Positions 2,834-32,243 of a stretch of DNA of 39,349 nucleotides are shown here, piece by piece. Origin of the DNA: Thermodesulfovibrionales bacterium (GTDB taxonomy: Bacteria > Nitrospirota > Thermodesulfovibrionia > Thermodesulfovibrionales > UBA6898); NCBI GenBank assembly GCA_044450345.1, contig JBIOIY010000026.1:1-39349 (forward strand), read 5' to 3'. Each line of letters opens with the position of its first letter. Position 1 is the first letter of the stretch. The notes under the pieces were generated by a model, which did no database searches, had not been told where the DNA came from, and saw only the letters and a list, made by a program, of their open reading frames with translations. The position numbers and the translations under genes are program-made.

Positions 2834-3588
2834 TATTGATTTTGACGATTGTGTCACCGGAGATTCTTTGCACCGCCGGTGCTGCACCGAATAGCTATCT
2901 CACGGTTTCGGCTGCGATGAGCCTGAAGAGCGCATTTGAGGAGATCGGGGCGATTTATGAACAGAAGTCTTCCGGGGTAAAGGTCCGTTTTAATTTCGGA
3001 GCATCAGGTATGCTCGAAAAACAGATCGAGTCGGGCGCACCCGCAGACATATTCGCATCTGCCTCCGTGAAGGAAATGGACGAGTTGGAATCGAAAGGCC
3101 TTATCATCAAAAATACCCGGTGGAACTTTGCCGGCAATTCACTGGTCCTCGTTGTTCCGGCGAATTCAAAACTGGAGGTAAGGTCACTTGATGATCTTGC
3201 GGCAAACCCGGTCAAGAGGATCGCCATCGGGAACCCCAAGAGCGTACCCGCCGGGAAATATTCTCAAGAGGCACTCAGGAACCTCCATCTTTTTGAGCGA
3301 CTAAAAGAGAAACTCGTGTATTCAGAAAACGTGGGGCAGGTCATGGACTATGTTTGCAGGGGAGAAGTCGATGGAGGCCTGGTATTTTATTCAGACACAT
3401 TTTCCCGCAGGGGCGGCTTTAAGATTGCAGGGAAGGTCCCCGACGGAAGTCATGAGGAGATCAATTATCCTATTGCGGTGATTCGGGGCACGAGGAACGA
3501 GTCTCTTGCAAAGGCGTTTATCCTGACGGTCATATCCGAAAAAGGCAAAGAGGTCCTTGAGAAGAACGGCTTTGCCCTGAGACCCTAG
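2815..3588 (+). CDS. modA: Molybdate ABC transporter periplasmic binding protein
   Basis: Signal peptide, VSAAMSL, FNFGASGML, GAPADIFASAS, AIGNPKSVPAG. Confidence 0.93.
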   Translation: MLKRILILILTIVSPEILCTAGAAPNSYLTVSAAMSLKSAFEEIGAIYEQKSSGVKVRFNFGASGMLEKQIESGAPADIFASASVKEMDELESKGLIIKNTRWNFAGNSLVLVVPANSKLEVRSLDDLAANPVKRIAIGNPKSVPAGKYSQEALRNLHLFERLKEKLVYSENVGQVMDYVCRGEVDGGLVFYSDTFSRRGGFKIAGKVPDGSHEEINYPIAVIRGTRNESLAKAFILTVISEKGKEVLEKNGFALRP

Positions 3589-4259: not shown

Positions 4260-5011
4260 TGGGACTCGATGTCAGGATACGCAAAGAGGTGAAGGGATTT
4301 TCGCTGGATGTGGAATGGGAGATCGGTGATGAGCTTGTAGTGCTTTTCGGATACTCAGGGGCCGGAAAATCGATGACGCTCCAGTCGCTGGCCGGCATCG
4401 CGACGCCCGATGAGGGCCATATAGTACTTGACGGAAAAGTATATTTGGACAGTGGCGCAGGGATCAACGAACCGCCGCAGAAAAGGCCTTTCGGCTATGT
4501 ATTCCAGGACCTTGCGCTTTTTCCCCATATGACCTTGAAAGAGAATATCACCTATGGCGGCAAGGGGATAAGCAGAGCGGAACGAAATGAAAGAGCGGAT
4601 GAGATGATCGGGCTCTTCCGTCTCAAAGGGCTCGAAAGGAAACTTCCCTCCGAGATATCAGGCGGACAGAAACAGAGGGTCGCCCTTGCAAGGGCGCTTA
4701 TAAGAAGACCTGACCTGCTTCTCCTCGACGAGCCTTTTTCGGCCCTCGACAATCCGGTGCGGGTCGAGATGAGAAAGATCCTCATAGAGATAAGACGGGA
4801 GTTCGCTATACCGATTGTCCTTGTGACACATGACAGGTTCGAGGCATACACAATGGCCGACAGGATGATCATATACTCCGGAGGAAGGATTGTTCAGACA
4901 GGGTCTCCGGAAGAGATACTACATAGCCCGATGTCCCATGATGTTGAAGCACTTGTCAACCCGTCCGGATTTGCCCGGCCGTCCGCCGACGCCTTCAGCC
5001 TCTGCAGGTAA
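4259..5011 (+). CDS. modC: Molybdate ABC transporter ATP-binding protein
   Basis: Walker A GYSGAGKS, ISGGQKQR signature, LLLDEPF. The ATG at 4259 overlaps the modB stop (TGATG) and follows a GGAGG RBS. Confidence 0.9.
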   Translation: MGLDVRIRKEVKGFSLDVEWEIGDELVVLFGYSGAGKSMTLQSLAGIATPDEGHIVLDGKVYLDSGAGINEPPQKRPFGYVFQDLALFPHMTLKENITYGGKGISRAERNERADEMIGLFRLKGLERKLPSEISGGQKQRVALARALIRRPDLLLLDEPFSALDNPVRVEMRKILIEIRREFAIPIVLVTHDRFEAYTMADRMIIYSGGRIVQTGSPEEILHSPMSHDVEALVNPSGFARPSADAFSLCR

Positions 5012-5028: not shown

Positions 5029-5059
5029 TACATAATTGTAAGTACAAGACAATTGTGTA
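5029..5059 (+). promoter_or_regulatory. Tandem ACA-N4-TGT enhancer-like boxes
   Basis: tACAtaatTGTa (5030-5039) and gACAattgTGTa (5049-5058). Confidence 0.7.
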
Positions 5060-5103
5060 GCATCCATCCAATATATTGTCCTTATAAATCAAGCAAATTC
5101 ACC

Positions 5104-5118
5104 TGGCACGGTTTTGGC
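5104..5118 (+). promoter_or_regulatory. Sigma-54 promoter of the HTH-porin-APC operon
   Basis: TGGCAC-ggttt-TGGC, GG-N10-GC spacing. Confidence 0.8.
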
Positions 5119-5134
5119 AGATATCGAGCTAAAG

Positions 5135-5323
5135 ATGATGGAAACTCTTAAAGAAAAGATAAAGGAAATGGAAAGGGAAGAAATAATCAATGCCCTCAGA
5201 GAATCCGACTGGGTCATGGCAAAGGCCGCCAGGAAGCTCGGCATAACCGAACGGATGATCGGATACAAGATCAAGAAATACGGACTAAGGATAAAGGAGG
5301 TGCGATGGATCGAGCATGGGTAA
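5135..5323 (+). CDS. Stand-alone Fis-type (HTH_8) DNA-binding protein resembling the NifA C-terminal domain
   Basis: EREEIINALRESDWVMAKAARKLGITERMIGYKIKKYGL resembles the NifA C-terminus (GWVQAKAARLLG). The ATG at 5135 or 5138 is preferred because the TTG at 5114 lies inside the promoter. Confidence 0.75.
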   Translation: MMETLKEKIKEMEREEIINALRESDWVMAKAARKLGITERMIGYKIKKYGLRIKEVRWIEHG

Positions 5324-5392
5324 AGCGGGGGCTGTTGTTGACCAGGATTCGTGTGCATTAATTTGTCAAAAAAATAGTAAAAGGAGGAAGTA

Positions 5393-6499
5393 ATGAAGAA
5401 AGGGATTTTGAAAGCAGCAATGTTTCTTATGTTAATTTTGTTTGTTTCGAGGGCCTATGCCGAAGACGCAAAACCGGCGGGCCTGAACGTGGATGATATC
5501 AAGAAGGCGCTCGGCCTGAGCATCTATGTCCAGGGCGGGTATACCTATAATTTCAAGAACCCGGATTCCGGCGAGAATGACCTCAGGGTCTTCGACCACA
5601 AGTCCAATAGCTTCACTTTTGATCTCGCGGAGCTCATGTTCACAAAAGATGCGCCCCTCGGCGGCGTCGGTTACAGGCTCAAATTATCGGCCGGAGAAAC
5701 GGCAAAGTGGATACATTCGCGGGGGCTTGGCGATGTGGGTAAGGACGAGTTCGACCTCACCGAGGCGTATATCGACTATCTTGCGCCGATAGGCAAGGGG
5801 CTTAAGTTCCGGTTCGGAAAATTCGTCACCATGCACGGCGCCGAGGTAATCGAGGCGAAGGACAATTTCAATTATTCCCGTTCATTCCTCTTTAACTATG
5901 CCATTCCCTTTACGCATACCGGACTTTCGGCGGGGTATGCCTTTTCCGATAAAGTGAACGCGACCCTTTATGTGGTGAACGGCTGGGACAACACCGACGA
6001 CAACAACAAGGGGAAGACCGTTGGGGCGACTCTCGGCTGGACTCCGATAGATCCAGTAGGGTTGACATTTAATGTAATGTACGGTCCGGAGAAGGACGAC
6101 AACAACCACGACAACAGGTTCCTCTTCGACTGGGTAGGCACCTTTAAGCCGGTTAAGAACCTGACATTGCTCCTCAACACCGATTATGCGACAGAAGAAC
6201 ATTCTGCGGCTGACGGCGGCACCGGAAAATGGTACGGGATCGCAGGATATGCAAAGTATGATTTCAGCGACCTCTTCAGCGCAACGATCAGGGCCGAATA
6301 TTTCGATGATAAGGACGGCCTGAGGACGCTCACCGCGCAGAAGCTGAAAGAGATAACGTTAACCCCTGAATTCAGGGTCGCCAAGTCGATCATAGTCAGG
6401 CCTGAGTACAGACATGACTGGTCCGACCAGCAGACTTTTGATGCAAACAGCAGAAAAAGCCAGGACACCATCGCGCTCGGCGTGATGTATACGTGGTAG
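5393..6499 (+). CDS. Outer-membrane beta-barrel porin (BBP2/OmpL-like family)
   Basis: Signal peptide, GKFVTMHGAEVIE, NFNYSRSFLF, PFTHTG, NGWD, alternating beta-strands, terminal aromatic (YTW); AAGGAGG RBS. Confidence 0.8.
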   Translation: MKKGILKAAMFLMLILFVSRAYAEDAKPAGLNVDDIKKALGLSIYVQGGYTYNFKNPDSGENDLRVFDHKSNSFTFDLAELMFTKDAPLGGVGYRLKLSAGETAKWIHSRGLGDVGKDEFDLTEAYIDYLAPIGKGLKFRFGKFVTMHGAEVIEAKDNFNYSRSFLFNYAIPFTHTGLSAGYAFSDKVNATLYVVNGWDNTDDNNKGKTVGATLGWTPIDPVGLTFNVMYGPEKDDNNHDNRFLFDWVGTFKPVKNLTLLLNTDYATEEHSAADGGTGKWYGIAGYAKYDFSDLFSATIRAEYFDDKDGLRTLTAQKLKEITLTPEFRVAKSIIVRPEYRHDWSDQQTFDANSRKSQDTIALGVMYTW

Positions 6500-6572: not shown

Positions 6573-8471
6573 ATGTCAGAAACAACAAATACACCAGTCA
6601 CCAGGGGAACACTTGGACTGACGGGTCTTACCATGAACGCGATGGCGCTGATTGCGCCCGGAGCGTTCCTCTGGCTGACCTTCCAGATGCAGTCCCTTTA
6701 CGGCGCACCGATGGCAGGCATGGCCATGTGGTTCGGCATTCTCTTTGCGCTGTTACTCTGCTTTGCCACGGCGATAAGTTATTCGGAGTTGGCAAAGCTC
6801 TATCCGGGACCCGGCTCATCGTATCTTTACGCGGAGCAGGCGTACCTTTCAAAAACACACTCATACAAGTTCGCCCGTGTCGCAAAGTTCATCACGGGTT
6901 GGGCGAGTCATCTGTACTACTGGGTCTACCCCGGCGTCATGGTCGGCGTGACCGCGATCCTGGGCGGATTTCTGATGAACCAGTTCTGGCCGGACACCTT
7001 CAGCGGCACCTATAACAGCCCGCTCTTTATGTGGCTTTTCTGTGGCGTATTCGCTCTCGGCGTGGCGTACATCGCCTACCGCGGCGTAACAGGCACTACG
7101 GCGGTCAACGTGGCGATCAATATCATCCAGATCTCGGCTCTCCTGGTCTTTTCGGTGATTGCGATCGGCTACCGCGTTCAGCATCCGCAGGGCTCTACCG
7201 GGTATCATCTCTCTAACGGCGTGGCGATAAATTATCAGGTCGCCCAGGAGGTGGTGAAGGACGACAAGGGAAATCCGACACCGGTCTTGGACGAAAACAA
7301 CAAACCTACCGTGGATAAAGACGGCAAGCCCGTCTATAAGATGCAGGACGCTCAGGACAAAGACGGTAACCCTGTGCCTGCCGACAAGGACGGCAAGGCA
7401 GTAGCCGACCCTAAACTCGCTGCTCCTTTTACGGTCGACTATTCCCCTGAAGGGGCGATCGCAAAGGACGACAAGGGGAACCCTCAGTTCAACTATCATT
7501 CTTCGGCGGGTTCGGTTGTTCATCCTCACGGCTTCAACTTCATCTTCATCCAGGCGGCGATCGCGATCCTGATCCTGGTCGGTTTCGAGTCGGTCACCTC
7601 GATGGGCGATGAGGCCAAACACCCAAAGAGAGACATCCCGAGGGCCGTGCTATTGTCGCTTGCGATCCAGGGCGCTGTCTGCTATATGATAGAGTATTTC
7701 GCCGCGAACTACTTCCTTCATAACGGCTATACCATGCCGATGGCAGGCGCCTCCGGCGCGCCGGCCGCCGACATGATGGTGATAGTCGGCACATGGCTTT
7801 TCGGCAGCTATGCATTAGGCAAGGCGTTCATGCTGGTGCAGGCATTCACGGTCTTTCTGGCGCTTATCGGCACCACGCTTTCCTGCCTCAGCACCGGCGC
7901 CCGTGTCACCTATGCGATGGGCCGCGACGAAGAAGTGCCTTCTCACTTCGGCCTCCTGCATGGCAAGACAATGTCTCCCTATAAGGCGATATGGACACTG
8001 GCGGTGATCTCGGCGATCATCGGCATTATCACGGTAACAGTGTACATGGGCGGCCAGGCGACAGCGCCCGCGGCTCTGGACAAGCACAACTTCTGGTACA
8101 GCTTCGGCATTTTCTCGCCGGAGATGTACGTGTCGCTGCCCAACACGCTGGTCATCGTAACGCTGGTCAGCAACTTCGGCACGTTCCTTTTGTACATGAT
8201 CACTTGCTGGATCGCGATGGTGGCATTCAAAGAACACCACAGCTTCAACAGCATCAAGCACGTGGTCATCCCTGTTCTGGGATTGCTTGCAAACCTGGTG
8301 ATCATGCTCTTTTACCTGGTCGGTCCGTTTACGGTCGCCGGCATGAGCTGGAAGGAGCCGTTTATTGCGCTGGGTGTCTGTGCGCTCTGGGGCATTTACG
8401 GGGCCATCTACTTCCTCAAGTCCAGTAAGGCCAAGGGCAAGGAAGTGTTTCTAAGCAGCAAGCCTGCGTAA
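6573..8471 (+). CDS. APC-superfamily (amino acid/polyamine) permease with a large inserted hydrophilic loop
   Basis: About 12 TM segments; YSELAKLYPGPGSSY, GFESVTSMGDEAKHPKRDIPRA, ARVTYAMGRD; AAGGAG RBS. Confidence 0.85.
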   Translation: MSETTNTPVTRGTLGLTGLTMNAMALIAPGAFLWLTFQMQSLYGAPMAGMAMWFGILFALLLCFATAISYSELAKLYPGPGSSYLYAEQAYLSKTHSYKFARVAKFITGWASHLYYWVYPGVMVGVTAILGGFLMNQFWPDTFSGTYNSPLFMWLFCGVFALGVAYIAYRGVTGTTAVNVAINIIQISALLVFSVIAIGYRVQHPQGSTGYHLSNGVAINYQVAQEVVKDDKGNPTPVLDENNKPTVDKDGKPVYKMQDAQDKDGNPVPADKDGKAVADPKLAAPFTVDYSPEGAIAKDDKGNPQFNYHSSAGSVVHPHGFNFIFIQAAIAILILVGFESVTSMGDEAKHPKRDIPRAVLLSLAIQGAVCYMIEYFAANYFLHNGYTMPMAGASGAPAADMMVIVGTWLFGSYALGKAFMLVQAFTVFLALIGTTLSCLSTGARVTYAMGRDEEVPSHFGLLHGKTMSPYKAIWTLAVISAIIGIITVTVYMGGQATAPAALDKHNFWYSFGIFSPEMYVSLPNTLVIVTLVSNFGTFLLYMITCWIAMVAFKEHHSFNSIKHVVIPVLGLLANLVIMLFYLVGPFTVAGMSWKEPFIALGVCALWGIYGAIYFLKSSKAKGKEVFLSSKPA

Positions 8472-8555: not shown

Positions 8556-8611
8556 TCTTTTTACGCCACCCGTTTTCAATAGTATTTAATAAATGTTAAA
8601 GTGATTTGAAT

Positions 8612-10414
8612 ATGGAACTTATCTACGCTGAACTTTCTTCCCCCGGCCCTGCCCGTGAGAACAACGAGGATTTTGTTGGCTTCTGGCAGCCGCAAACAGT
8701 CGAGGAAAAACGCAGTCTCGGAGCAGTGGCTGTGCTGGCCGACGGCGTGGGAGGACTCAACTACGGTGAAGTGGCCAGCCGGCTGGCGGTAGAGACGACC
8801 CTCAAGGCGTTTCGAGAGGCCACGGGAGACCAGCCACCGCAGCAGCTCATTACACAGATGTTCAGTGCTGCTAATCGGGCCGTCTACGACAAAGGAATGG
8901 AGGACCACGGCAAGTCCCGTATGGCAACGACCCTGGCGGCAGTGGTACTGCGCAACAATGAGATCACGGTGGGCAATGTGGGAGACTCGCGTGTTTATTT
9001 GATACGTAAGGCCACGATCAAGCAGCTGTCTACCGACCATACCTATACCGGCATGCAGCAGAAATTCGGACTCATTTCCGAGCAGGAGGCCAATACCAGC
9101 GAGAACCGGTCGATCTTGACCCGGAGCGTCGGGCATGAGCTGGTGATCCGGGTGGATGTGGAGAGCGCAACGGTGTTCAAGGGAGATAAGGTTGTGCTCT
9201 GTTCCGACGGCCTGTACACGCACGTGGCAGACAGCGAAATCGCCGACATCGTCTCTCGTTATTCTCCGGCACAGGCCTGCCGTCAGCTTGTTGCCCTGGC
9301 AGAGCAACGCGGCACCGAAGACAATGTTTCCGTGCAGGTACTGCAGATCAACGACGTCGAGAAGGTCGCGTTATACCGCGGCGTGGCGATGTATCAGGAG
9401 TCGGCGGACCCGACAACAAAATATGAACTCCGGCCGGGGCAGACCCTAGACAACCGTTTCCTCATCCTCGAGACGATCAGTCGCAGCGGAATGGCGACCA
9501 TATTCAAGGCGACGGACCATAAGACCAAGAAGACCGTGGCGGTGAAGGTCCCGCTCATGCAGTTTGAGAGCGATCCGGGCTTTTACTCCCGGTTCCTTCG
9601 CGAGGAGGAGATCGGGAGCCGTCTGGACCATCCCTACATCCTGAAATTCATTCCTATCGAGGAGGGACAGCGCAGCCGGCCGTACATCGTGACTGAATAT
9701 CTGCGCGGCTACACGCTTTCGCACCTGTTGAACAGCGTCCGCCCGCTGCCCGAAAAGGACGCGACCAAACTTGCCGGCCGCGTCTGCGAGGCGCTTGTGT
9801 ATATGCATGCGCACGGCGTCGTCCATCGGGACCTCAAACCCCAGAATATTATGCTCTGCAATGACGGGACGATACGGATCATGGACTTCGGCATCGCCAA
9901 GACCAAGGAGGGGAGACGGCTCACGTTCACCGGCTTCACGCCTGCCGTCGGCACTCCCGATTATATGGCCCCCGAGCAGGTCAAGGGGAAGCGCGGGGAC
10001 GAGCGGACCGACATCTACAGCCTTGGCGCCATTCTCTACGAAATGATAGTCGGCACTACGCCGTTTGAGTGCGAGAATGAAAATCCGCTCGTGATCATGA
10101 ACGCCCGCATCAACGGCGACTCCGTTGCCCCGCGGAAACGCAATCCGAATGTCTCACCTCAGACAGAGGAGATCATCCTGCACGCCATGGAACGGGACCC
10201 AAAGAACCGCTACCAATCAGCCGCAGCGATGAAGGCCGACCTGGATAATCCGGCGGCCGTGCAATTGACCGGCCGGTGTGACAGGCTCCAGACGCCGACC
10301 CCGTGGAAGCGGAGCTGGAAGAAAGCGCTTTGGTTCGCGCTTGCCGTCACTGTCCCTACCATTATTTTCATCCTCTTGGTTCTGCTGATTATCCACCGCG
10401 GCCCGGCGCATTGA
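8612..10414 (+). CDS. Bifunctional PP2C phosphatase / Hanks-type Ser/Thr kinase with C-terminal membrane anchor
   Basis: PP2C motifs ADGVGG, VGDSR, LTRSVG, CSDGL, EDN. Kinase motifs VAVK, HRDLKPQN, DFG, GTPDYMAPE. One C-terminal TM helix. Confidence 0.9.
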   Translation: MELIYAELSSPGPARENNEDFVGFWQPQTVEEKRSLGAVAVLADGVGGLNYGEVASRLAVETTLKAFREATGDQPPQQLITQMFSAANRAVYDKGMEDHGKSRMATTLAAVVLRNNEITVGNVGDSRVYLIRKATIKQLSTDHTYTGMQQKFGLISEQEANTSENRSILTRSVGHELVIRVDVESATVFKGDKVVLCSDGLYTHVADSEIADIVSRYSPAQACRQLVALAEQRGTEDNVSVQVLQINDVEKVALYRGVAMYQESADPTTKYELRPGQTLDNRFLILETISRSGMATIFKATDHKTKKTVAVKVPLMQFESDPGFYSRFLREEEIGSRLDHPYILKFIPIEEGQRSRPYIVTEYLRGYTLSHLLNSVRPLPEKDATKLAGRVCEALVYMHAHGVVHRDLKPQNIMLCNDGTIRIMDFGIAKTKEGRRLTFTGFTPAVGTPDYMAPEQVKGKRGDERTDIYSLGAILYEMIVGTTPFECENENPLVIMNARINGDSVAPRKRNPNVSPQTEEIILHAMERDPKNRYQSAAAMKADLDNPAAVQLTGRCDRLQTPTPWKRSWKKALWFALAVTVPTIIFILLVLLIIHRGPAH

Positions 10415-14105: not shown

Positions 14106-14135
14106 TACATTGTTGTCATGTGAGACATTTTTGTC
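14106..14135 (+). promoter_or_regulatory. Tandem ACA-N4-TGT enhancer-like boxes
   Basis: tACAttgtTGTc (14107-14116) and gACAttttTGTc (14125-14134). Confidence 0.7.
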
Positions 14136-14180
14136 GCAGATTTAACCGGTCGAATCCTTGCAAAACAACAGTATCTTGCC

Positions 14181-14195
14181 TGGCACGCTGATTGC
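14181..14195 (+). promoter_or_regulatory. Sigma-54 promoter of the divergent PII-SMR-amt operon
   Basis: TGGCAC-gctga-TTGC, a perfect match to consensus. Confidence 0.9.
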
Positions 14196-14222
14196 TGCTA
14201 CATTTTAAAAAGGAGGCCCATT

Positions 14223-14558
14223 ATGAAGAGAATAGAGGCTATTATACGTCCGACCAGGGTCGGCAGGGTATGCACTGCCCTTGAAGGAATGGGACACCCA
14301 GGCCCCAGGATTTCCCAGGTTGAAGACAAAAGTCAAACAGGCACAGGATATCTGTTAAGAGGCATCACATATAAGGCGGATCTGGTGACCAAGTCGAGGG
14401 TGGAGGTGATTGCTAAAGATGGAGAGGCAGACATGATCATCAACGCCATCCGCGAGGCGGCCTTCACCGGCCAAAACGGAGACGGCGAGATATTCGTGTA
14501 TGCCATTGAAGATGTCGTACGTATACGGACCGGTGAAAGTGGGGAGGCGGCGATATAA
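14223..14558 (+). CDS. Divergent PII (GlnB/GlnK-family) signal protein
   Basis: MKRIEAIIRP, TGQNGDGEIFV, RIRTGESGEAAI; T-loop base and B-loop Lys are altered; AAGGAGG RBS. Confidence 0.88.
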   Translation: MKRIEAIIRPTRVGRVCTALEGMGHPGPRISQVEDKSQTGTGYLLRGITYKADLVTKSRVEVIAKDGEADMIINAIREAAFTGQNGDGEIFVYAIEDVVRIRTGESGEAAI

Positions 14559-14645
14559 TAAGGTGCTCGCAAGTAAAAACTCATTAACTTGGATAACCTC
14601 ATCGCGCTCTTCGGGCTGCGCATCTTTATCGTGCGAGGTTTACAG

Positions 14646-14969
14646 ATGACGTATCTTGCCTGGCTCATTTTCGTTGGTGCGGCAGTTCTGGAGGTCGGCG
14701 GCGATGCGGTCGTTCGCAAGGGACTTCGCGGAAGCAGTCTCATCATCATACTGATTGGATTCGCCATGTTGGGTTCTTACGGGGTTGTCGTCAATACGGT
14801 GAAATGGGATTTTTCAAAATTGCTCGGAGTATACGTTGCGATCTTTGCGATCATAAGCATATTATTCGGTCGGTTTGTATTCGAAGAAAATATACCAACG
14901 ACGACCTGGATCGGATTGATGGTTATCGTTTGCGGCGGGATGATAATCCAGTTTGGGGAGAGGATATAG
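14646..14969 (+). CDS. Small 4-TM SMR/DMT-like (YnfA-like) membrane protein
   Basis: 107 aa, four hydrophobic helices, TM1 Glu in AAVLEVGGD, GVYVAIF; GAGG RBS. Confidence 0.7.
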   Translation: MTYLAWLIFVGAAVLEVGGDAVVRKGLRGSSLIIILIGFAMLGSYGVVVNTVKWDFSKLLGVYVAIFAIISILFGRFVFEENIPTTTWIGLMVIVCGGMIIQFGERI

Positions 14970-15034
14970 TCACACAACGGCTGTCCGGATTATATGGACG
15001 TGGAAAAGATCAACAGCGATAGGGAGATGACTAG

Positions 15035-16588
15035 ATGAAGCAATTTCTAATCATAGGATTCTTGATGGTATTTATACTTACGGCGAACATGCTGTTTGCC
15101 GAAGAACAGGTGCGGAAGGCTAACCCTCCTTCTCAGGCTGAGCAGGATGCGCCCGCTCAGCCTGCACCTGCTACACCCGCCCCGGTCTTCAAAGCGGACC
15201 CCTCGGGCGCGAATACGGGAGGCGCCGCCGATGTCGTCGGCGCCACGGCAGGCGCACCGACTGCGGACGATATGAAGAAACTGGCCGCGAACGAGCCACT
15301 CGCGGTGAAACTGGCGGATGTCATAGGCCATAATCGGACTGCTCTTAATGTTGTATGGATGCTGGTCTGCGCGTATCTCGTCTTTTTTATGCAGGCGGGC
15401 TTTGCCATGGTGGAGACCGGCTTTACGAGGGCGAAGAACGCGGGCCATACCATGGCGATGAACATGATGGTGTTTGTCTTTGCGGTGCTCGGCTACTGGA
15501 TCTGCGGCTACGCGTTCCAGATGGGCGGCAAGGGATTTTTTCTTTCCGGATCGTCCTATGATGTGTCAATCATCACTCTCTTCATGTCCCAGGTGGTCTA
15601 TATGAACATCGCGGCCACAATTCCGACAGGTGCAATGGCCGAGCGCTGGACATTCAAGTCATTGGTCGTCTATGGGTTCTTTATCTCCATGTTCACCTAC
15701 CCGCTGTATGCGAACTGGGTATGGGGCGGCGGATGGCTCTCGCAACTCGGCAAGAACTTCGGCCTCGGCCACGGGGTCCTCGATTTTGCCGGCTCATCTG
15801 TGGTCCATATGGTTGGAGGAGTTTCGGCGCTGACAGGGGCGATCGTCCTTGGTCCCCGCATGGGAAAATATAGGGCCAATGGAACTCCCGTTGCAATTCC
15901 CGGACATCACATTCCGATGGCCATCATCGGGTGCTTGATACTCTTCTTTGGGTGGTTCGGGTTCAATTCCGGCCCAGCCCTCGCGGCCGGCAATTTGAGA
16001 ATCGGGGTCATAGCGGTAAATACTATGCTTGCATCCGCGGCAGCGTCCTTCTCGGCGATGCTCTACATGTGGATCAAGTATGGGAAACCGGACCTCTCGA
16101 TGTGCGCGAACGGACTCCTTGCCGGCCTTGTCGCCATCACTGCGCCGTGCGCATTTGTGAGTACCGTTGGAGCGGTAATTATCGGGCTTGTTGCCGGAGT
16201 TCTTTGTTGTGCGAGTGTCTTCTTCGTTGAACGCACGCTTAAGGTGGACGATCCTGTGGGCGCGGTGTCGGTCCACGGCACGTGCGGCGCCTGGGGCCTT
16301 ATCGGGCTCGGACTCTTTGCCGACGGCACATACGGCGACGGCCTGAACAATGTCCCCGGCACGGTCAAAGGGCTGTTTTATGGCGGCGCATCACAGTTCG
16401 CGGCCGAAGTAATAGGTGTCGTAGTAAACTTCGTCTTTGTATTTATCGTGATGTATGCATTCTTCACGCTGCTGAATAAAATCATTCCTCTGCGTGTGTC
16501 TGAAGAAACAGAGTTCGAAGGCCTTGACCAGAACGAAGTGGCTGTTACCGCATATCCCGACTTCAGTGTCACGAAGGCCCGCAGATAG
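15035..16588 (+). CDS. amt: Ammonium transporter (Amt family), paralog 1 with atypical S1-site residues
   Basis: FFMQAGFAMVETG, GAMAER, DFAGSSVVH, GWFGFN, DDPVGAVSVHG. Confidence 0.92.
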   Translation: MKQFLIIGFLMVFILTANMLFAEEQVRKANPPSQAEQDAPAQPAPATPAPVFKADPSGANTGGAADVVGATAGAPTADDMKKLAANEPLAVKLADVIGHNRTALNVVWMLVCAYLVFFMQAGFAMVETGFTRAKNAGHTMAMNMMVFVFAVLGYWICGYAFQMGGKGFFLSGSSYDVSIITLFMSQVVYMNIAATIPTGAMAERWTFKSLVVYGFFISMFTYPLYANWVWGGGWLSQLGKNFGLGHGVLDFAGSSVVHMVGGVSALTGAIVLGPRMGKYRANGTPVAIPGHHIPMAIIGCLILFFGWFGFNSGPALAAGNLRIGVIAVNTMLASAAASFSAMLYMWIKYGKPDLSMCANGLLAGLVAITAPCAFVSTVGAVIIGLVAGVLCCASVFFVERTLKVDDPVGAVSVHGTCGAWGLIGLGLFADGTYGDGLNNVPGTVKGLFYGGASQFAAEVIGVVVNFVFVFIVMYAFFTLLNKIIPLRVSEETEFEGLDQNEVAVTAYPDFSVTKARR

Positions 16589-16627: not shown

Positions 16628-16673
16628 AATATTACTACAAAAATGTATCAATGAACATTTTTGTAGTAATATT
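16628..16673. promoter_or_regulatory. Perfect 19-bp inverted repeat containing two ACA-N4-TGT boxes
   Basis: AATATTACTACAAAAATGT-N8-ACATTTTTGTAGTAATATT. Confidence 0.8.
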
Positions 16674-16710
16674 ATTTTTGAGTTTCATTTAAAATCAAGG
16701 GGTTCTATTA

Positions 16711-16725
16711 TGGCATGTTTTTAGC
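16711..16725 (+). promoter_or_regulatory. Sigma-54 promoter of amtB-glnK
   Basis: TGGCAT-gtttt-TAGC (GG-N10-GC); IHF-like AATCAAggggTT at 16693-16704. Confidence 0.75.
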
Positions 16726-16763
16726 AAACCTTTTTGTAACAACTACCATAATGGAGGTTTGAG

Positions 16764-18179: not shown

Positions 18180-18527
<348 letters not shown>

Positions 18528-22419: not shown

Positions 22420-25146
22420 ATGATAACTCTGACAATCAACGGCAGGAAAGTCACGGTGAGTGAGACATCGACCATCCTCGAGGCTGCAAGGGCCAACGGC
22501 ATCTTCATCCCGACCATCTGCCATCACTCGAAACTCACGCCGTTCGGCGGATGCAGGCTGTGCCTCGTTGATGTTAAGGGCATGCCGAAGCCTGTTGCGT
22601 CATGCACGACTTCTGCGGCCGAGGGCATGGAAATAGTCACCTCAACGCCGTACATAGAGGAACTCAGAAGGCTTGTTCTGGAACTTATCCTCTCCGACCA
22701 CCCCAGCGACTGCATGGTATGCGAAAAGACGGGTGCCTGCACGCTCCAGGAACTCGCGTATGTATACGGAATCAGGGAAAATCCCTTCCAGGGCGAAAGA
22801 AGGGTTTACAAGAAGAAAGACGGGAACCCCTTCATCGAGAGAGACCTCGAAAAGTGCATCATGTGCGGAAGATGCGTAAAGGTCTGCGACGAGGTCCAGG
22901 GGGTGGAGGCGATCGATTTCGGCTATCGCGGGTTCCAGGCGAAGATCTGCACCTCCTTTGAAGACGACCTCGATTGCGAGTTTTGCGGGCAATGCGTTTC
23001 CGTCTGCCCGACAGGCGCCCTCACCGGGAAACTCTGGGCGCAGATGGGGAGACCGGGAAGTACGAAGGAAGTCGATACGGTCTGTCCCTATTGCGGTACA
23101 GGGTGCAATATCACCGCCCACGTAAAGGGGAACGAGATAGTCAGGATCGCTTCCGCAGATGACACCCCGAATGAAGGGTGGCTCTGCGTCAAGGGCAGGT
23201 TCGGGTACAAGTTTGTCAATAGCTCCGACCGTCTCACAAAGCCACTCATAAGAATAGAGCCGAAGGGTAGGGGCGGGGTGACCCCGCCCGTACAGAAGTC
23301 AGAAAAAAAATCCGCAATTTTCAGGGAAGCGTCATGGGACGAGGCACTTGATCATATCGTCTCCAGGCTCAAGGAGATAAAGTCAAAAAACGGCGCTGAC
23401 GCCCTTGCCGGACTTTCATCGGCGCGTTGTACCAACGAAGAAAATTATGTATTCCAGAAGTTTATGCGCGCCGCGGTAGGGACGAACAACGTCGACCACT
23501 GCGCACGTCTCTGACACGCTCCTACCGTGGCCGGTCTGGCCGCGATCTTCGGTTCAGGGGCGATGACTAATTCCATCCGCGAGATAGAGGGGATGGAGGT
23601 CATCTTCATCGTCGGATCGAACACGAAGGAGACACATCCCGTCATCGCCAACCGGATGATAAAGGCATACCGGAAGGGCGCTAAGATCATCGTTGCCGAC
23701 CCCAGGAGGGTGCCGATGGTGAAATTCGCCGAGGTCTTTATGAAGATGAAGCCGGGGACGGACATCGCCCTCCTCAACGGTATCGCCAATGTGATTGTAA
23801 AGGACGGTCTGAGCAACGAGGAGTTTATACAGGGGAAGACGGAAGGGTTCGAAGCGTGGAAGAAGTCCATCGGGGAATATACTCCAGAGCGGGTTGAGGG
23901 TATCACGGGAGTTCCCAAAGGTGATATCATCAAGGCCGCCAGGATTTACGGCTCATCGCGCAAGGCCGGTATCTTCTATACCATGGGCATAACCCAGCAT
24001 TCCTGCGGGACGGACAACGTGCGGGCGATCGCAAACCTTGCGACCCTCACCGGCAACATAGGACGGGAATCTACGGGGGTTAATCCGCTCCGGGGCCAAA
24101 ACAATGTCCAGGGGTCTTCCGACGCCGCTTGCATGCCGAATGTGTATCCGGGGTATCAGAGGGTGGACCTGCCTGAGATAAGGCAGAGGTTCGAGGCTGC
24201 ATGGGGTGTTGCCCTTCCTCCCAACCCGGGAATTACCGCCACCGAGATGATGGATGCAGCGGTTGACGGGAAGATCAAGGGAATGTATATCATGGGAGAA
24301 AACCCGATCATCACCGACCCGAACATGCACCATACCATCAAGGCTCTCGAGAGCCTCGAGTTCCTTGTGGTCCAGGATATATTCATGACCGATACGGCCG
24401 CGCTTGCGGACGTGGTCCTTCCCGCCGCCTGTTCTTTCGAGAAAGACGGTACTTTCACTAACACCGAGCGAAAGGTGCAGAGGGTGCGGAAGGCGGTCGA
24501 GCCGCCCGGAGAGGCAAGAGACGACCTTTCTATCATAATGGAGGTCTCGAAGCGGCTTGGATATCAAATGAACCACAATTCTGTGGAGAAGATCCTGAAA
24601 GAATATGGATCGCTTTGGCCGGCCATGGCAGGCATCACTTACGGCAGGCTCGATAAAAAAGGTATCCAGTGGCCGTGTCCTTCGGAGGAGCATCCCGGGA
24701 CGGAATTCCTTTACAAAGACGGCTTCCCGAAAGGCAGGGTCCCGTTCGTGCCTGTTTCATATAGCCCTCCGGCGGAAATTACCGATGCGGAATATCCTTT
24801 TATCCTGACGACCGGAAGAAATCTTTTTCAGTATCATTCGGGATCGATGTCGAGGCGTGTTAAACCTATCGAGGAGCATGCGGGAGAGCCCTATGTCGAG
24901 ATACATCCCGAAGACGGCCGAAGGCTCGGGGTAAAAACCGGTGACAGAATAAAAGTCGCATCCCGGCGCGGAGAGATAGAGATCAAGACGAGATTTACGA
25001 AAAAAGTATCGGAAGGCGTGGTCTTCATCCCCATGCACTACCGCGAGGCGGCGGCAAATGTGATCACCAACGACGCCCTTGACCCTGTTGTCAAGATCCC
25101 CGAGTTCAAGGTCTGCGCGGTAAAGGTAGCGCCTGCCGAAAAATAG
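22420..25146 (+). CDS. fdhA: Selenocysteine-containing formate dehydrogenase alpha subunit (NuoG-like Fe-S N-terminus plus Mo/W-bisPGD domain), 908 aa via UGA read-through
   Basis: ORFs 22420-23514 and 23527-25146 are in the same frame and joined by CARL-UGA-HAPTVAGL. Also CPYCGTGC, LCVKGRFG, PLRGQNNVQG, KIPEFKVCAV. Confidence 0.92.
23267..23293. repeat. GTAG-type REP-like palindrome in frame within fdhA
   Basis: GTAG-GGGCGGGGT-g-ACCCCGCCC-GTAC, encoding GRGGVTPPV. Confidence 0.6.
23512..23543 (+). promoter_or_regulatory. Sec UGA codon and bacterial SECIS element
   Basis: TGA at 23512-23514; stem GTGGCC-GGTCT-GGCCGC begins 12 nt downstream and resembles the E. coli fdhF SECIS apical GGUCU. 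Confidence 0.85.
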
Positions 25147-29882: not shown

Positions 29883-32243
29883 GTGCGACAAGAAGTCGCA
29901 TAAGTAATTGTCTCAAATCGCGTGGCATTGCGATTAGGAGACCGTCTATTCCGTTAGAGGTAGCCACTGCCCTGAATAAAGTGCGGGCAGGAAAGGATAA
30001 CCTGATCGAAAGATCCAATCAAAGCCGTGAGGCGATGATATATCTGCCAGCATCGAGGCGGATAAGGTGTCGGCTTGGTGGTACGACTAACATAGGTGAA
30101 CTGCTGATAAACTTCGTAAAACTACAACAAGCCAAAGATGCTGAAAGGCTTGCACCAAAAGGTACATAGCTGGTTAATCTCGTCACCTGTGGGATTACAC
30201 GGACATACAGCTATCGGAGGAAAGGCAGAGTCTAACCCACCATTGTTACTTATGCGGAACTTGGTAAACCCATATTCCTCCCGAAAGGGAAAGCAACCCG
30301 TAAGGGAAGCCGATAGGGATGTGGGCATGGGACAGTAGAGAAAGCGAATGCCGGCCTGTAACGGGTCGGATAAGGATTGAGCGAAAGCGACATCATCCTA
30401 GGCGAAAGCAGGCAGACTTCTACTTGGTCTTTCTTTGCAAGAGAATTTACAGAACCTTCGAAGGAGGAAAAGCAAATGAATACAGCTGTTAATGTATGTG
30501 CATCCTCCTGCGGGACTGTGCAGTGGTCCAACATCGATTGGGCGCAATGCATCAGGAACGTAAGGAGGCTGCAAATCCGTATTGCGAAGGTAACGCAGGA
30601 AGGCAGATGGAACAAGGTGAAAGCCCTGCAACGTCTGTTGACCGGCTCGTTCTCCGGCAAAGCATTAGCCGTAAAACGGGTAACTGAAAACGAAGGCAAA
30701 AGAACATCAGGAGTTGACAAGCAGCTATGGTCGACGCCTGAGGCCAAATCACGGGCAGTACAGAACCTTAACAGGCGAGGCTATAAGCCTCTTCCGTTAA
30801 AGCGGGTCTACATTCCGAAAAGCAGAACAAAGATGCGTCCGCTTGGGATTCCGACAATGAAGGACAGGGCCATGCAGGCACTATATCTGTTAGCTCTGGA
30901 GCCAATCGCGGAAACGACGGCGGACAGGAACTCGTATGGGTTCAGACCGGAAAGAGCTACTCACGATGCTATCGAGAAATGTTTCAATGTTTTATCACGA
31001 AAAACATCTGCAAGGTGGATACTGGACGGCGACATCCGAGGCTGCTTTGACAATATCAACCATGAATGGTTAATCGGCAATATCCCGATGGATAGGAAGA
31101 TTCTCCGGAAATGGTTAAAGGCAGGTTACGTTCACAAACGAATCCTTTATCCAACAGAGGCGGGTACTCCGCAGGGCGGAATAATCTCGCCGACGTTGGC
31201 TAATATGACACTCGATGGATTGGAAGCGGAACTGAAGGAGTTTCGCGCACAAGACAAGGTTCATATGGTCAGGTATGCGGATGACTTTATTATTACTGGC
31301 AGCTCTAAGGAGCTTCTGGAGAATGAAGTCAAACCCTTGGTTGAGAAGTTTCTCTCAGCGCGGGGGCTGGAACTCTCCCCGGAGAAAACCAGTATTGCGC
31401 ATATCGATGAAGGGTTCGACTTCCTTGGTGTGAGCATTCGCAAGTATGTTGGCAAACTGCTCACGAAGCCGTCCAAGAAGAATGTGAAGGCATTCCTCGA
31501 TAAAGTCAGGAATATTATAAAGGCTAACAGAAACGCAAAACAGATCAATTTGATAATGCTGCTCAATCCGATTATCAGGGGATGGGCGAATTATCACAGG
31601 TCTGTGGTAGCGTCGAAAACCTTCAACCGTGTAGACAAAGAGATTTGGCAATCGTTATGGCGATGGGCAAAGCGGCGGCATCCGAAGAAAAGTTCCAGGT
31701 GGATTAAAGATAAGTACTTTAAGACAGTTGGGAACAGACGTTGGAGATTTGCCGCTGATGATAGGGAACGGTTATATCCTGATGGAAAGCCCTACAGGGT
31801 ATCACTTTCCCTCGCGTCAGGTGTGCCGATCCAACGGCATAGAAGAATCAGAAGCGAGGCAAATCCCTTCGACCCCAAGTTTGAAACTTATTTTGAGAAA
31901 CGATCGATCTCAAAATTGAGAGACAATCTGAAAGGGGCTAAGAGATTATGGAAACTCTGGCTACATCAGGGTGGTCTCTGTCCAATCTGTCATCAGAAAA
32001 TTACAGGCGATATGCAATGGGATATCCATTATATCAACCATAAGGCTGACGGCGGAAAGGGCAATGTCTCAAATCTGATACTCACGCATGCTAGTTGCCA
32101 TCGTATGGTTCATAGCCTGTAGTTGGAAGTTGTGGAACCGGCAGCCACTGGCTGTTTATGAAAGGCTTGAGCCGTGTGTGGGGAAACTTACACGCACGGT
32201 TCTTATGGGGCCGGGGCTCAGTAATGGGCCTCGGCTACCAAAC
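29883..32243 (+). mobile_element. Group II intron (IIB-like), full length, about 2.36 kb
   Basis: 5' GTGCG at 29883. Domain V GAGCCGTGTGTGGGGAAACTTACACGCACGGTTC (32169-32202) has the AGC triad. Domain VI ends CTACCAAAC. EBS1 and EBS2 match the flanking exon. Confidence 0.9.
30476..32122 (+). CDS. ltrA: Group II intron-encoded reverse transcriptase/maturase with HNH-type endonuclease domain
   Basis: AAGGAGG RBS; RPLGIPT, SYGFRP, GTPQGGIISP, RYADD, FDFLG, RGWANY, CPIC...NL...HASCH. Confidence 0.95.
   Translation: MNTAVNVCASSCGTVQWSNIDWAQCIRNVRRLQIRIAKVTQEGRWNKVKALQRLLTGSFSGKALAVKRVTENEGKRTSGVDKQLWSTPEAKSRAVQNLNRRGYKPLPLKRVYIPKSRTKMRPLGIPTMKDRAMQALYLLALEPIAETTADRNSYGFRPERATHDAIEKCFNVLSRKTSARWILDGDIRGCFDNINHEWLIGNIPMDRKILRKWLKAGYVHKRILYPTEAGTPQGGIISPTLANMTLDGLEAELKEFRAQDKVHMVRYADDFIITGSSKELLENEVKPLVEKFLSARGLELSPEKTSIAHIDEGFDFLGVSIRKYVGKLLTKPSKKNVKAFLDKVRNIIKANRNAKQINLIMLLNPIIRGWANYHRSVVASKTFNRVDKEIWQSLWRWAKRRHPKKSSRWIKDKYFKTVGNRRWRFAADDRERLYPDGKPYRVSLSLASGVPIQRHRRIRSEANPFDPKFETYFEKRSISKLRDNLKGAKRLWKLWLHQGGLCPICHQKITGDMQWDIHYINHKADGGKGNVSNLILTHASCHRMVHSL

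Follow-up and report, generated by a model that had tools for sequence, protein, structure and literature searches.

A stand-alone NifA-like DNA-binding mini-protein encoded at the head of nitrogen-starvation operons in Nitrospirota: a candidate feedback regulator of its own sigma-54 enhancer

The locus and its promoter

The window, that is, the whole analysed stretch of 39,349 nucleotides, contains a short forward-strand gene of 62 codons plus a stop codon (hereafter the mini gene; Table 1), with a second ATG at 5138. In a Pfam search its product, the mini-protein, matched HTH_8 (E=2.4e-13; 50 bits against a curated cut-off of 22) with residues 9-49 on profile positions 2-42 of 42, and it can thus be assigned to this family over the whole domain. 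GAF and AAA+ domains were absent from the same search, and the sole extra match was the related HTH_50. The preliminary description, in which the frame was read as a Fis-type HTH alone without GAF or AAA+ domain, is thereby borne out, and the peptide quoted there is present in the translation. An opposite-strand open reading frame of 89 aa (5089-5358) overlaps the mini gene; the HTH_8 match and the codon-level selection described below are both found in the forward frame.

Upstream, the gene for an ABC-transporter ATPase ends at 5011, and the mere 123 nt of intergenic DNA before the ATG could not accommodate the remains of a nifA body. This spacer carries a sigma-54 site and two enhancer boxes, in agreement with the earlier view of an intact promoter at this place. 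The site TGGCACGGTTTTGGCA fits 11 of the 12 specified positions of the -24/-12 consensus, and the C of its -12 GC is located at 5118, 16 nt from the ATG. Placed by the usual sigma-54 spacing, the transcription start would presumably lie at about 5130, which would give a leader of about 5 nt. As no SD-like tetramer is present in the 18 nt preceding the ATG, the notion of a start codon about 5 nt past the predicted transcription start and without SD also stands. Translation of the mini gene into protein is predicted from the sequence.

Position-wise comparison of 65 related promoters unveiled a third conserved element, AAATCAA..agtT, directly 5' of the -24 region, which we take to fit the IHF consensus. 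It lies immediately upstream of -24, unusually near the promoter for a bending site. Apart from the boxes, this element and the -24/-12 region, no other operator-like conservation was detected in the 105 nt examined (counted from the start of TGGCA, 60 nt upstream and 45 nt downstream). Because these promoters already carry a conserved IHF-type element (ATCAA-N4-TT) between boxes and -24, the alternative once offered for the mini-protein, a Fis-like architectural co-factor, is weakened.

Table 1. Coordinates of the mini gene, its regulatory elements and associated features (window positions; C71 and C47 are other contigs of the same genome)
Feature	Position	Strand	Basis or context
Distal enhancer box ACATAATTGT (core of TACA-N4-TGTA)	5030..5039	.	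74 nt before promoter; position recurs in 65/66 related promoters
Proximal enhancer box ACAATTGTGT	5049..5058	.	55 nt before promoter
AAATCAA-N4-TT element, IHF-consensus-like	5086..5099	+	position-wise conservation, 65 promoters anchored on TGGCA
Sigma-54 type -24/-12 promoter TGGCACGGTTTTGGCA	5104..5119	+	pattern match; equivalents in 66/84 family copies
Mini gene, 62-aa stand-alone HTH_8 protein	5135..5323	+	open reading frame, Pfam, structure model, selection
OmpL-like beta-barrel porin (BBP2), second gene	5393..6499	+	Pfam; porin follows in 19/83 related copies
632-aa amino-acid-permease-like membrane protein, third gene	6573..8471	+	follows mini gene in 16/83 copies
PP2C phosphatase / Ser-Thr kinase fusion, fourth gene of conserved block	8606..10414	+	with permease-like gene in same 16/83 copies
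Enhancer and sigma-54 promoter	14107-14196		promoter at 14181; before PII-like, YnfA-like and amt genes
Enhancer and sigma-54 promoter	16637-16726		promoter at 16711; before amt/glnK
Paired-box site	C71:9426		before nifH
Paired-box site	C47:2930		before third amt gene

A small nitrogen regulon

By the strict pattern, three sigma-54 sites are found in the window (5104, 14181 and 16711), and each is preceded by two ACA-N4-TGT boxes that start 74 and 55-56 nt upstream. At 16628-16673 the two boxes make up a near-perfect 45-bp palindrome. Across the 3.19-Mb assembly there are 25 matches to the strict promoter pattern and 471 single ACA-N4-TGT boxes. Pairs of boxes spaced 6-12 nt apart were observed five times, as opposed to roughly 0.5 expected by our own arithmetic, and the pairing of boxes in this genome is thus far beyond chance. 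Since all five paired-box sites precede nitrogen genes (the mini-gene operon, three amt operons and nifH), the mini gene belongs to a small, purely nitrogen-related sigma-54 regulon. Its earlier designation as first gene of an enhancer-driven operon is supported by its promoter-proximal position and by the regulon that it has in common with amt, glnK and nifH.

Several further features of the window were recorded. Besides the three strict sites there is a sigma-54-like site at 786-801 (TGGCACCGCGTTTGCG), the fourth in the window; one GACAAAATTGTC box lies 86 nt in front of it (together 699-801). The genes that follow encode a radical-SAM protein, a ThiF-family protein and a molybdate/tungstate-type ABC transporter, and metal-cofactor supply may hence be part of the same regulon. 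The PII-like protein encoded at 14223 is atypical, with 65.9 bits compared to 117 for the glnK-type protein at 18189; its gene is followed by one for a YnfA/UPF0060-like membrane protein and then by one for an Amt protein with an N-terminal extension of roughly 100 aa (14223-16588). A formate-dehydrogenase alpha-like gene (22420-25146) forms a single frame interrupted by a TGA at 23512-23514 within CARLUH, very probably a selenocysteine codon. Finally, a group II intron occupies 29942-32243, with Rfam domains D1-D4 at 29942-30069, domain V-VI at 32167-32243 and an open reading frame for a reverse transcriptase/maturase/HNH protein at 30377-32122.

Conservation of the mini gene, its promoter and its operons

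Among 1493 candidate proteins of 34-109 aa, 1489 were homologous to the mini-protein at E<=0.001; the best 120 of these show 77-95% identity, and those with a named source belong to Nitrospiraceae or Thermodesulfovibrionales. Species-representative genomes yielded 80 related Nitrospirota loci with 83 copies, all in stop-to-stop frames of 61-138 aa. Codons 5-49 of 77 copies gave a mean pS of 0.81 and a mean pN of 0.15, and the median dN/dS of 0.11 (152 pairs with pS 0.1-0.6) reveals strong purifying selection. Twelve residues are invariant in the family (L5, E13, A31, A32, L35, I37, T38, R40, I42, Y44, K45 and K48). The preliminary description had proposed to look at conservation, synteny and dN/dS, all of which speak for a genuine gene, and had warned that relatives might carry a full-length nifA in its place, an arrangement that was never found. 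The short frames of all 83 copies, the purifying selection and the conserved promoter and boxes exclude a deletion remnant.

Of 301 Nitrospirota genomes sampled, 138 gave a match at E<=1e-14; among the 150 matches listed, a short-frame match (<160 aa) occurs in at least 64 genomes. Among the matches listed, several genomes of the order (for example G086, G106, G134 and G217) are represented by the long NifA-like frame of 508-532 aa alone, with the mini gene missing at E<=1e-14, which indicates that the activator works without the mini gene. A more NifA-like variant of the mini-protein heads a porin-like/amt/PII arrangement in genomes of the same phylum outside the window's class, and small clusters of stand-alone HTH_8 proteins are present in other phyla too, so that the architecture as such is not new.

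The promoter is retained together with the gene. In 84 copies, the window included, a sigma-54 site with a score of at least 9/12 was sought within 80 nt of the start and found in 66, with a gap of 10-43 nt, mostly 15-25, between the -12 C and the ATG. At least one box accompanies 65 of these 66 sites and a box pair 48 of them; the box positions peak at 73-76 and 55-58 nt, and the consensus across the family promoters is cTACAaaaTTGTAgc. An SD-like tetramer occurs in 61 of the 82 copies with an assigned ATG. The window belongs to the 21 copies without it, seven of which, again including the window, have promoter-ATG gaps of 10-17 nt. Two loci from genomes outside the window's class, L089 (about 3210-3235) and L090 (reverse strand), have a mini-gene promoter of the type TGGCAY-N5-TTGTA, in which GT takes the place of GC at -12; its boxes are located at a greater distance upstream.

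Gene context was counted on the same strand within 5 kb downstream of the mini gene. Amt and/or PII genes follow in 55 of the 83 copies (54 Amt, 42 PII), and the permease-like gene plus PP2C/kinase gene, the window's operon type, which has neither a PII nor an Amt gene, accounts for a further set (Table 1). The remaining arrangements include ten copies without Amt, PII or permease/PP2C downstream, six of which have less than 1.1 kb of flank. By Pfam, the first downstream gene codes for a BBP2 porin in 16 copies, for Amt in 14 and in most others for a family-less protein of 225-320 aa. Several genomes hold two or three mini-gene copies, each heading a different operon. In the window, no forward-strand terminator-like site was found between the mini gene and the porin gene. 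Taken together, the mini gene is a real and conserved first gene of nitrogen-starvation operons in Nitrospirota.

Some variation within the family deserves mention. A decayed second copy lies in a 76-aa frame of the window's own genome (C72:7161-7223); it is 76% identical over the recognition helix alone and lacks the first helix. The window protein and the other members of one subfamily share a conserved C-terminal tail, GLRIKEVRWIE(D/E) (residues 50-60), which most of the family either lacks or replaces by another sequence. A search for longer homologues returned 15 matches, none with an AAA+ domain, which is weak evidence for the absence of long relatives. At least five of them are metagenome proteins in which the mini-protein is fused by read-through to the product of the downstream gene, namely Amt (P0124, P0128, P0137), PII (P0129) or BBP2 porin (P0134); in P0130 and P0136 it continues into a signal-peptide protein without Pfam family. 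P0137 represents a group of 16 sequences and P0130 one of 27. Since a separate Met and signal peptide are retained in the downstream part, these fusions look like stop-codon losses; if translated as one chain, they would give a membrane-tethered HTH.

Relation to the NifA-like activator

The best NCBIfam match of the mini-protein is the NifA equivalog TIGR01817 (E=7.4e-12), followed by AtoC (2.6e-5). The match covers the last 46 positions of the profile (488-533 of 534), and its 44.8 bits are far below the equivalog cut-off of 528.85; the 62-aa protein is not a full-length NifA. Within the genome, the closest full-length protein is a GAF-AAA+-HTH NifA-like activator encoded near glnA (C2:146378-147913), which is 51% identical over the domain, compared to at most 46% for the other activators. 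The "NifA-like" label given to the HTH at the outset is supported by these matches. Both proteins share the signatures W-V-x-A-K-A-A-R and R-x-I-G-Y-K, and the common residues comprise T38, R40, I42, G43, Y44, K45, K47 and Y49.

Comparison of the recognition helices, GITERMIGYKIKKY in the mini-protein and GITPRQIGYKMKRY in the NifA-like activator, gave a divided answer to the question raised previously of whether this helix matches NifA. Most positions are shared, but two differ consistently: E39 is present in 76 and M41 in 72 of 77 mini-proteins, whereas NifA-like proteins of the same class have P and Q there. As these residues are fixed in each family, the DNA specificity may differ. Some full-length NifA-like proteins of other Nitrospirota carry the intermediate TPRM.

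A nifA-like gene is located directly upstream of the mini gene in 3 of the 80 loci (L027, L032 and L061) and also in genomes G220 and G256. These adjoining activators are orthologues of the activator near glnA (70-78% identical), and in the three loci a separate promoter with boxes is retained for the mini gene despite the upstream gene. On the basis of similarity scores and this linkage, the mini gene probably derives from a duplicated C-terminal domain of the NifA-like activator of the phylum.

The genome encodes 20 sigma-54 AAA+ activators with strong Sigma54_activat matches, 18 of which coincide with HTH_8 matches; the other two (C2:11140 and C51:14094) end in a divergent HTH, as judged by eye from their C-termini. 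Because all 20 thus have a C-terminal HTH of their own, a role of the mini-protein as DNA-binding subunit for an HTH-less bEBP was rejected. Of these 20 bEBPs, the NifA-like protein is presumed to be the one that occupies the boxes.

In an AF2 model (pLDDT 83.8), the mini-protein folds into three helices (5-23, 28-35 and 39-49) with a disordered tail, and no extra dimerising helix is seen. By sequence, the top-ranking PDB entries are 2m8g (E=1.6e-8), whose chain X is a 70-aa "Transcriptional regulator" of the NtrC family, and NifA 9qq6 chain C (E=4.5e-7), a "Nif-specific regulatory protein". The model superimposes on 2m8g chain X with a TM score of 0.76 and an rmsd of 1.6 A, and with the same TM score on the NtrC4 DNA-binding domain. 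The three-helix fold of sigma-54 activator DNA-binding domains is hence present, with weak Foldseek E-values (5.8e-3 or worse). Prediction of a homodimer from two copies gave a score of 0.01, from which the method makes no call either way.

Possible functions of the mini-protein

Most likely, the mini-protein modulates the enhancer that switches on its own operon. In the reading that we favour, the NifA-like activator would, under nitrogen limitation, occupy the two TACA-N4-TGTA boxes and, aided by an IHF-type bend, fire the sigma-54 promoter. The mini-protein would be the first product of the operon, made from a very short or absent leader, and could go back to the same boxes at its own operon, at the amt/glnK operons and at nifH. 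Such unproductive occupancy would hinder assembly of the activator ring, and induction would be damped or shaped in a negative feedback. Binding to these boxes would follow from the mini-protein's retention of most of the activator's recognition helix, and unproductive occupancy from its lack of an ATPase; the negative sign of the effect is likewise a prediction. An anti-activator function is plausible; the specific proposal that the ATPase-less protein binds the boxes and disturbs activator assembly is a tentative one, to which we give somewhat less than an even chance. Greater reserve is due to the wider proposal of a natural bEBP microProtein, i.e. a copy of the NifA-like DNA-binding domain only, placed in leader position of the operons that the activator induces and acting across Nitrospirota through decoy feedback on ammonium uptake and nitrogenase expression, or by shaping their induction pulse; this is possible, with doubt prevailing.

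An overexpressed C-terminal domain of NifA reportedly occupied the UAS sites and inhibited activation (Morett, Cannon and Buck in 1988). The isolated NifA DNA-binding domain is a monomer and binds DNA weakly in vitro (PMC10590331), and on this account a 62-aa monomer may be a poor competitor. This weak monomeric binding, the two fixed differences in the recognition helix and the relatives with activator but without mini gene all count against feedback.

The same two helix differences would fit an altered specificity, and the mini-protein could instead be a second-tier regulator that is induced by the activator, binds other sites, for example at sigma-70 promoters, and represses or activates genes beyond the reach of sigma-54, much as Nac couples the sigma-54 signal to other promoters. 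A precedent is HgtR, a 62-aa repressor made from an RpoN promoter beside an EBP gene (PMC2817479). This explanation is unlikely on balance but deserves serious attention: a second conserved motif was not seen in the family's own promoters, and if the same motif is kept, no separate regulon is visible. In a genome-wide search for such a regulon, 28 of 143 single [TG]ACA-N4-TGT[AC] boxes were intergenic, compared to an intergenic share of 14.7% of the genome, and about 10 of these 28 are known enhancers, so that little intergenic enrichment is left beyond them.

A third possibility is that the mini-protein helps the activator by stabilising it on the boxes, or is a partner gated by the neighbouring PII/GlnK, Amt or glutamine synthetase; in Firmicutes, the DNA binding of GlnR and TnrA is switched by a nitrogen-status protein. 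The frequent Amt and PII genes downstream (55 of 83 copies) and the rare read-through fusions to Amt, PII or porin would suit this role, as would the subfamily tail RIKEVRWIE, which lies outside the HTH, is disordered in the model and could be an interaction motif. Nevertheless, it appears rather improbable, as the fusions resemble stop-codon losses and not designed fusions, most family members lack the tail or have another one, the window's operon type lacks PII and Amt genes, and architecture is already supplied by the IHF-type element. A decoy of the feedback type might also be gated by PII/GlnK through the conserved tail.

It is hardly credible that the mini gene represents the inactive remains of a shortened nifA-like gene, or a frame that arose by chance: the protein does correspond to the last domain of a bEBP alone and a decayed second copy does exist in the genome, but the median dN/dS of 0.11, the conserved promoter and boxes, the short-frame matches in at least 64 of 301 genomes and the upstream region of only 123 nt argue against it.

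Comparison with known regulatory systems

To our knowledge, the known checks on sigma-54 activators act via their sensory or ATPase domains (NifL, PspA, PII). If the feedback reading on the boxes is true, a conserved decoy that occupies the enhancer would represent another principle of control for these activators and would provide a simple, portable part for tuning sigma-54 circuits. Independently of this, the analysis defines a nitrogen enhancer of Thermodesulfovibrionia-type Nitrospirota, composed of two TACA-N4-TGTA boxes 18-19 bp apart, an IHF-like element and a -24/-12 promoter, as well as its small regulon in one genome, and both are directly testable.

The mini-protein resembles the C-terminal domain of NifA and other bEBPs in its three-helix HTH_8 fold; it differs in being a separate gene with its own promoter, in the absence of GAF and AAA+ domains and in having E39/M41 for P/Q. 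Another free-standing HTH_8 protein is the nucleoid protein Fis of Enterobacteria, which is believed to derive from an NtrC DNA-binding domain and has about 98 aa, including an N-terminal arm and a further helix for dimerisation. The fold search also returned Fis structures (TM 0.67-0.72), but the mini-protein, with 62 aa and three helices only, shows nothing in its model that matches the N-terminal arm and first helix of Fis, and cannot be classed as Fis. Unlike Fis, it is driven by sigma-54 and an enhancer and is confined to nitrogen operons.

Small regulators that are made by a specialised regulon and feed back on it or extend it are represented by Nac, GerE and GlnR/TnrA, which belong to other HTH families (LysR, LuxR and MerR). 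GerE is the stand-alone output domain of a larger regulator family, and glnR heads its own nitrogen operon. We know of none among them that is a copy of its own activator's DNA-binding domain. A full-text literature search, conducted mostly at the level of abstracts, likewise returned no stand-alone NifA or HTH_8 mini-regulator, which fits the original remark that no example had been described, and logical analogues such as HgtR do exist.

HgtR of Geobacter sulfurreducens is expressed from an RpoN -24/-12 promoter, controls many RpoD-type genes, has no sensor domain and adjoins an EBP gene whose product is thought to induce it (PMC2817479). Both proteins are sensor-less, have 62 aa and an RpoN/sigma-54 promoter and are found near an EBP gene; HgtR differs in being a predicted ribbon-helix-helix protein without similarity to known proteins, in its monocistronic gene and in acting on carbon and energy genes (PMC2817479). 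The logic of HgtR is recognisable in the mini gene, with a predicted -24/-12 promoter directly before the gene and an EBP gene nearby. Should the mini-protein have targets of its own, it would be the Nac or HgtR equivalent of the phylum. With the targeting domain of a regulator and no effector domain, its composition is that of a microProtein.
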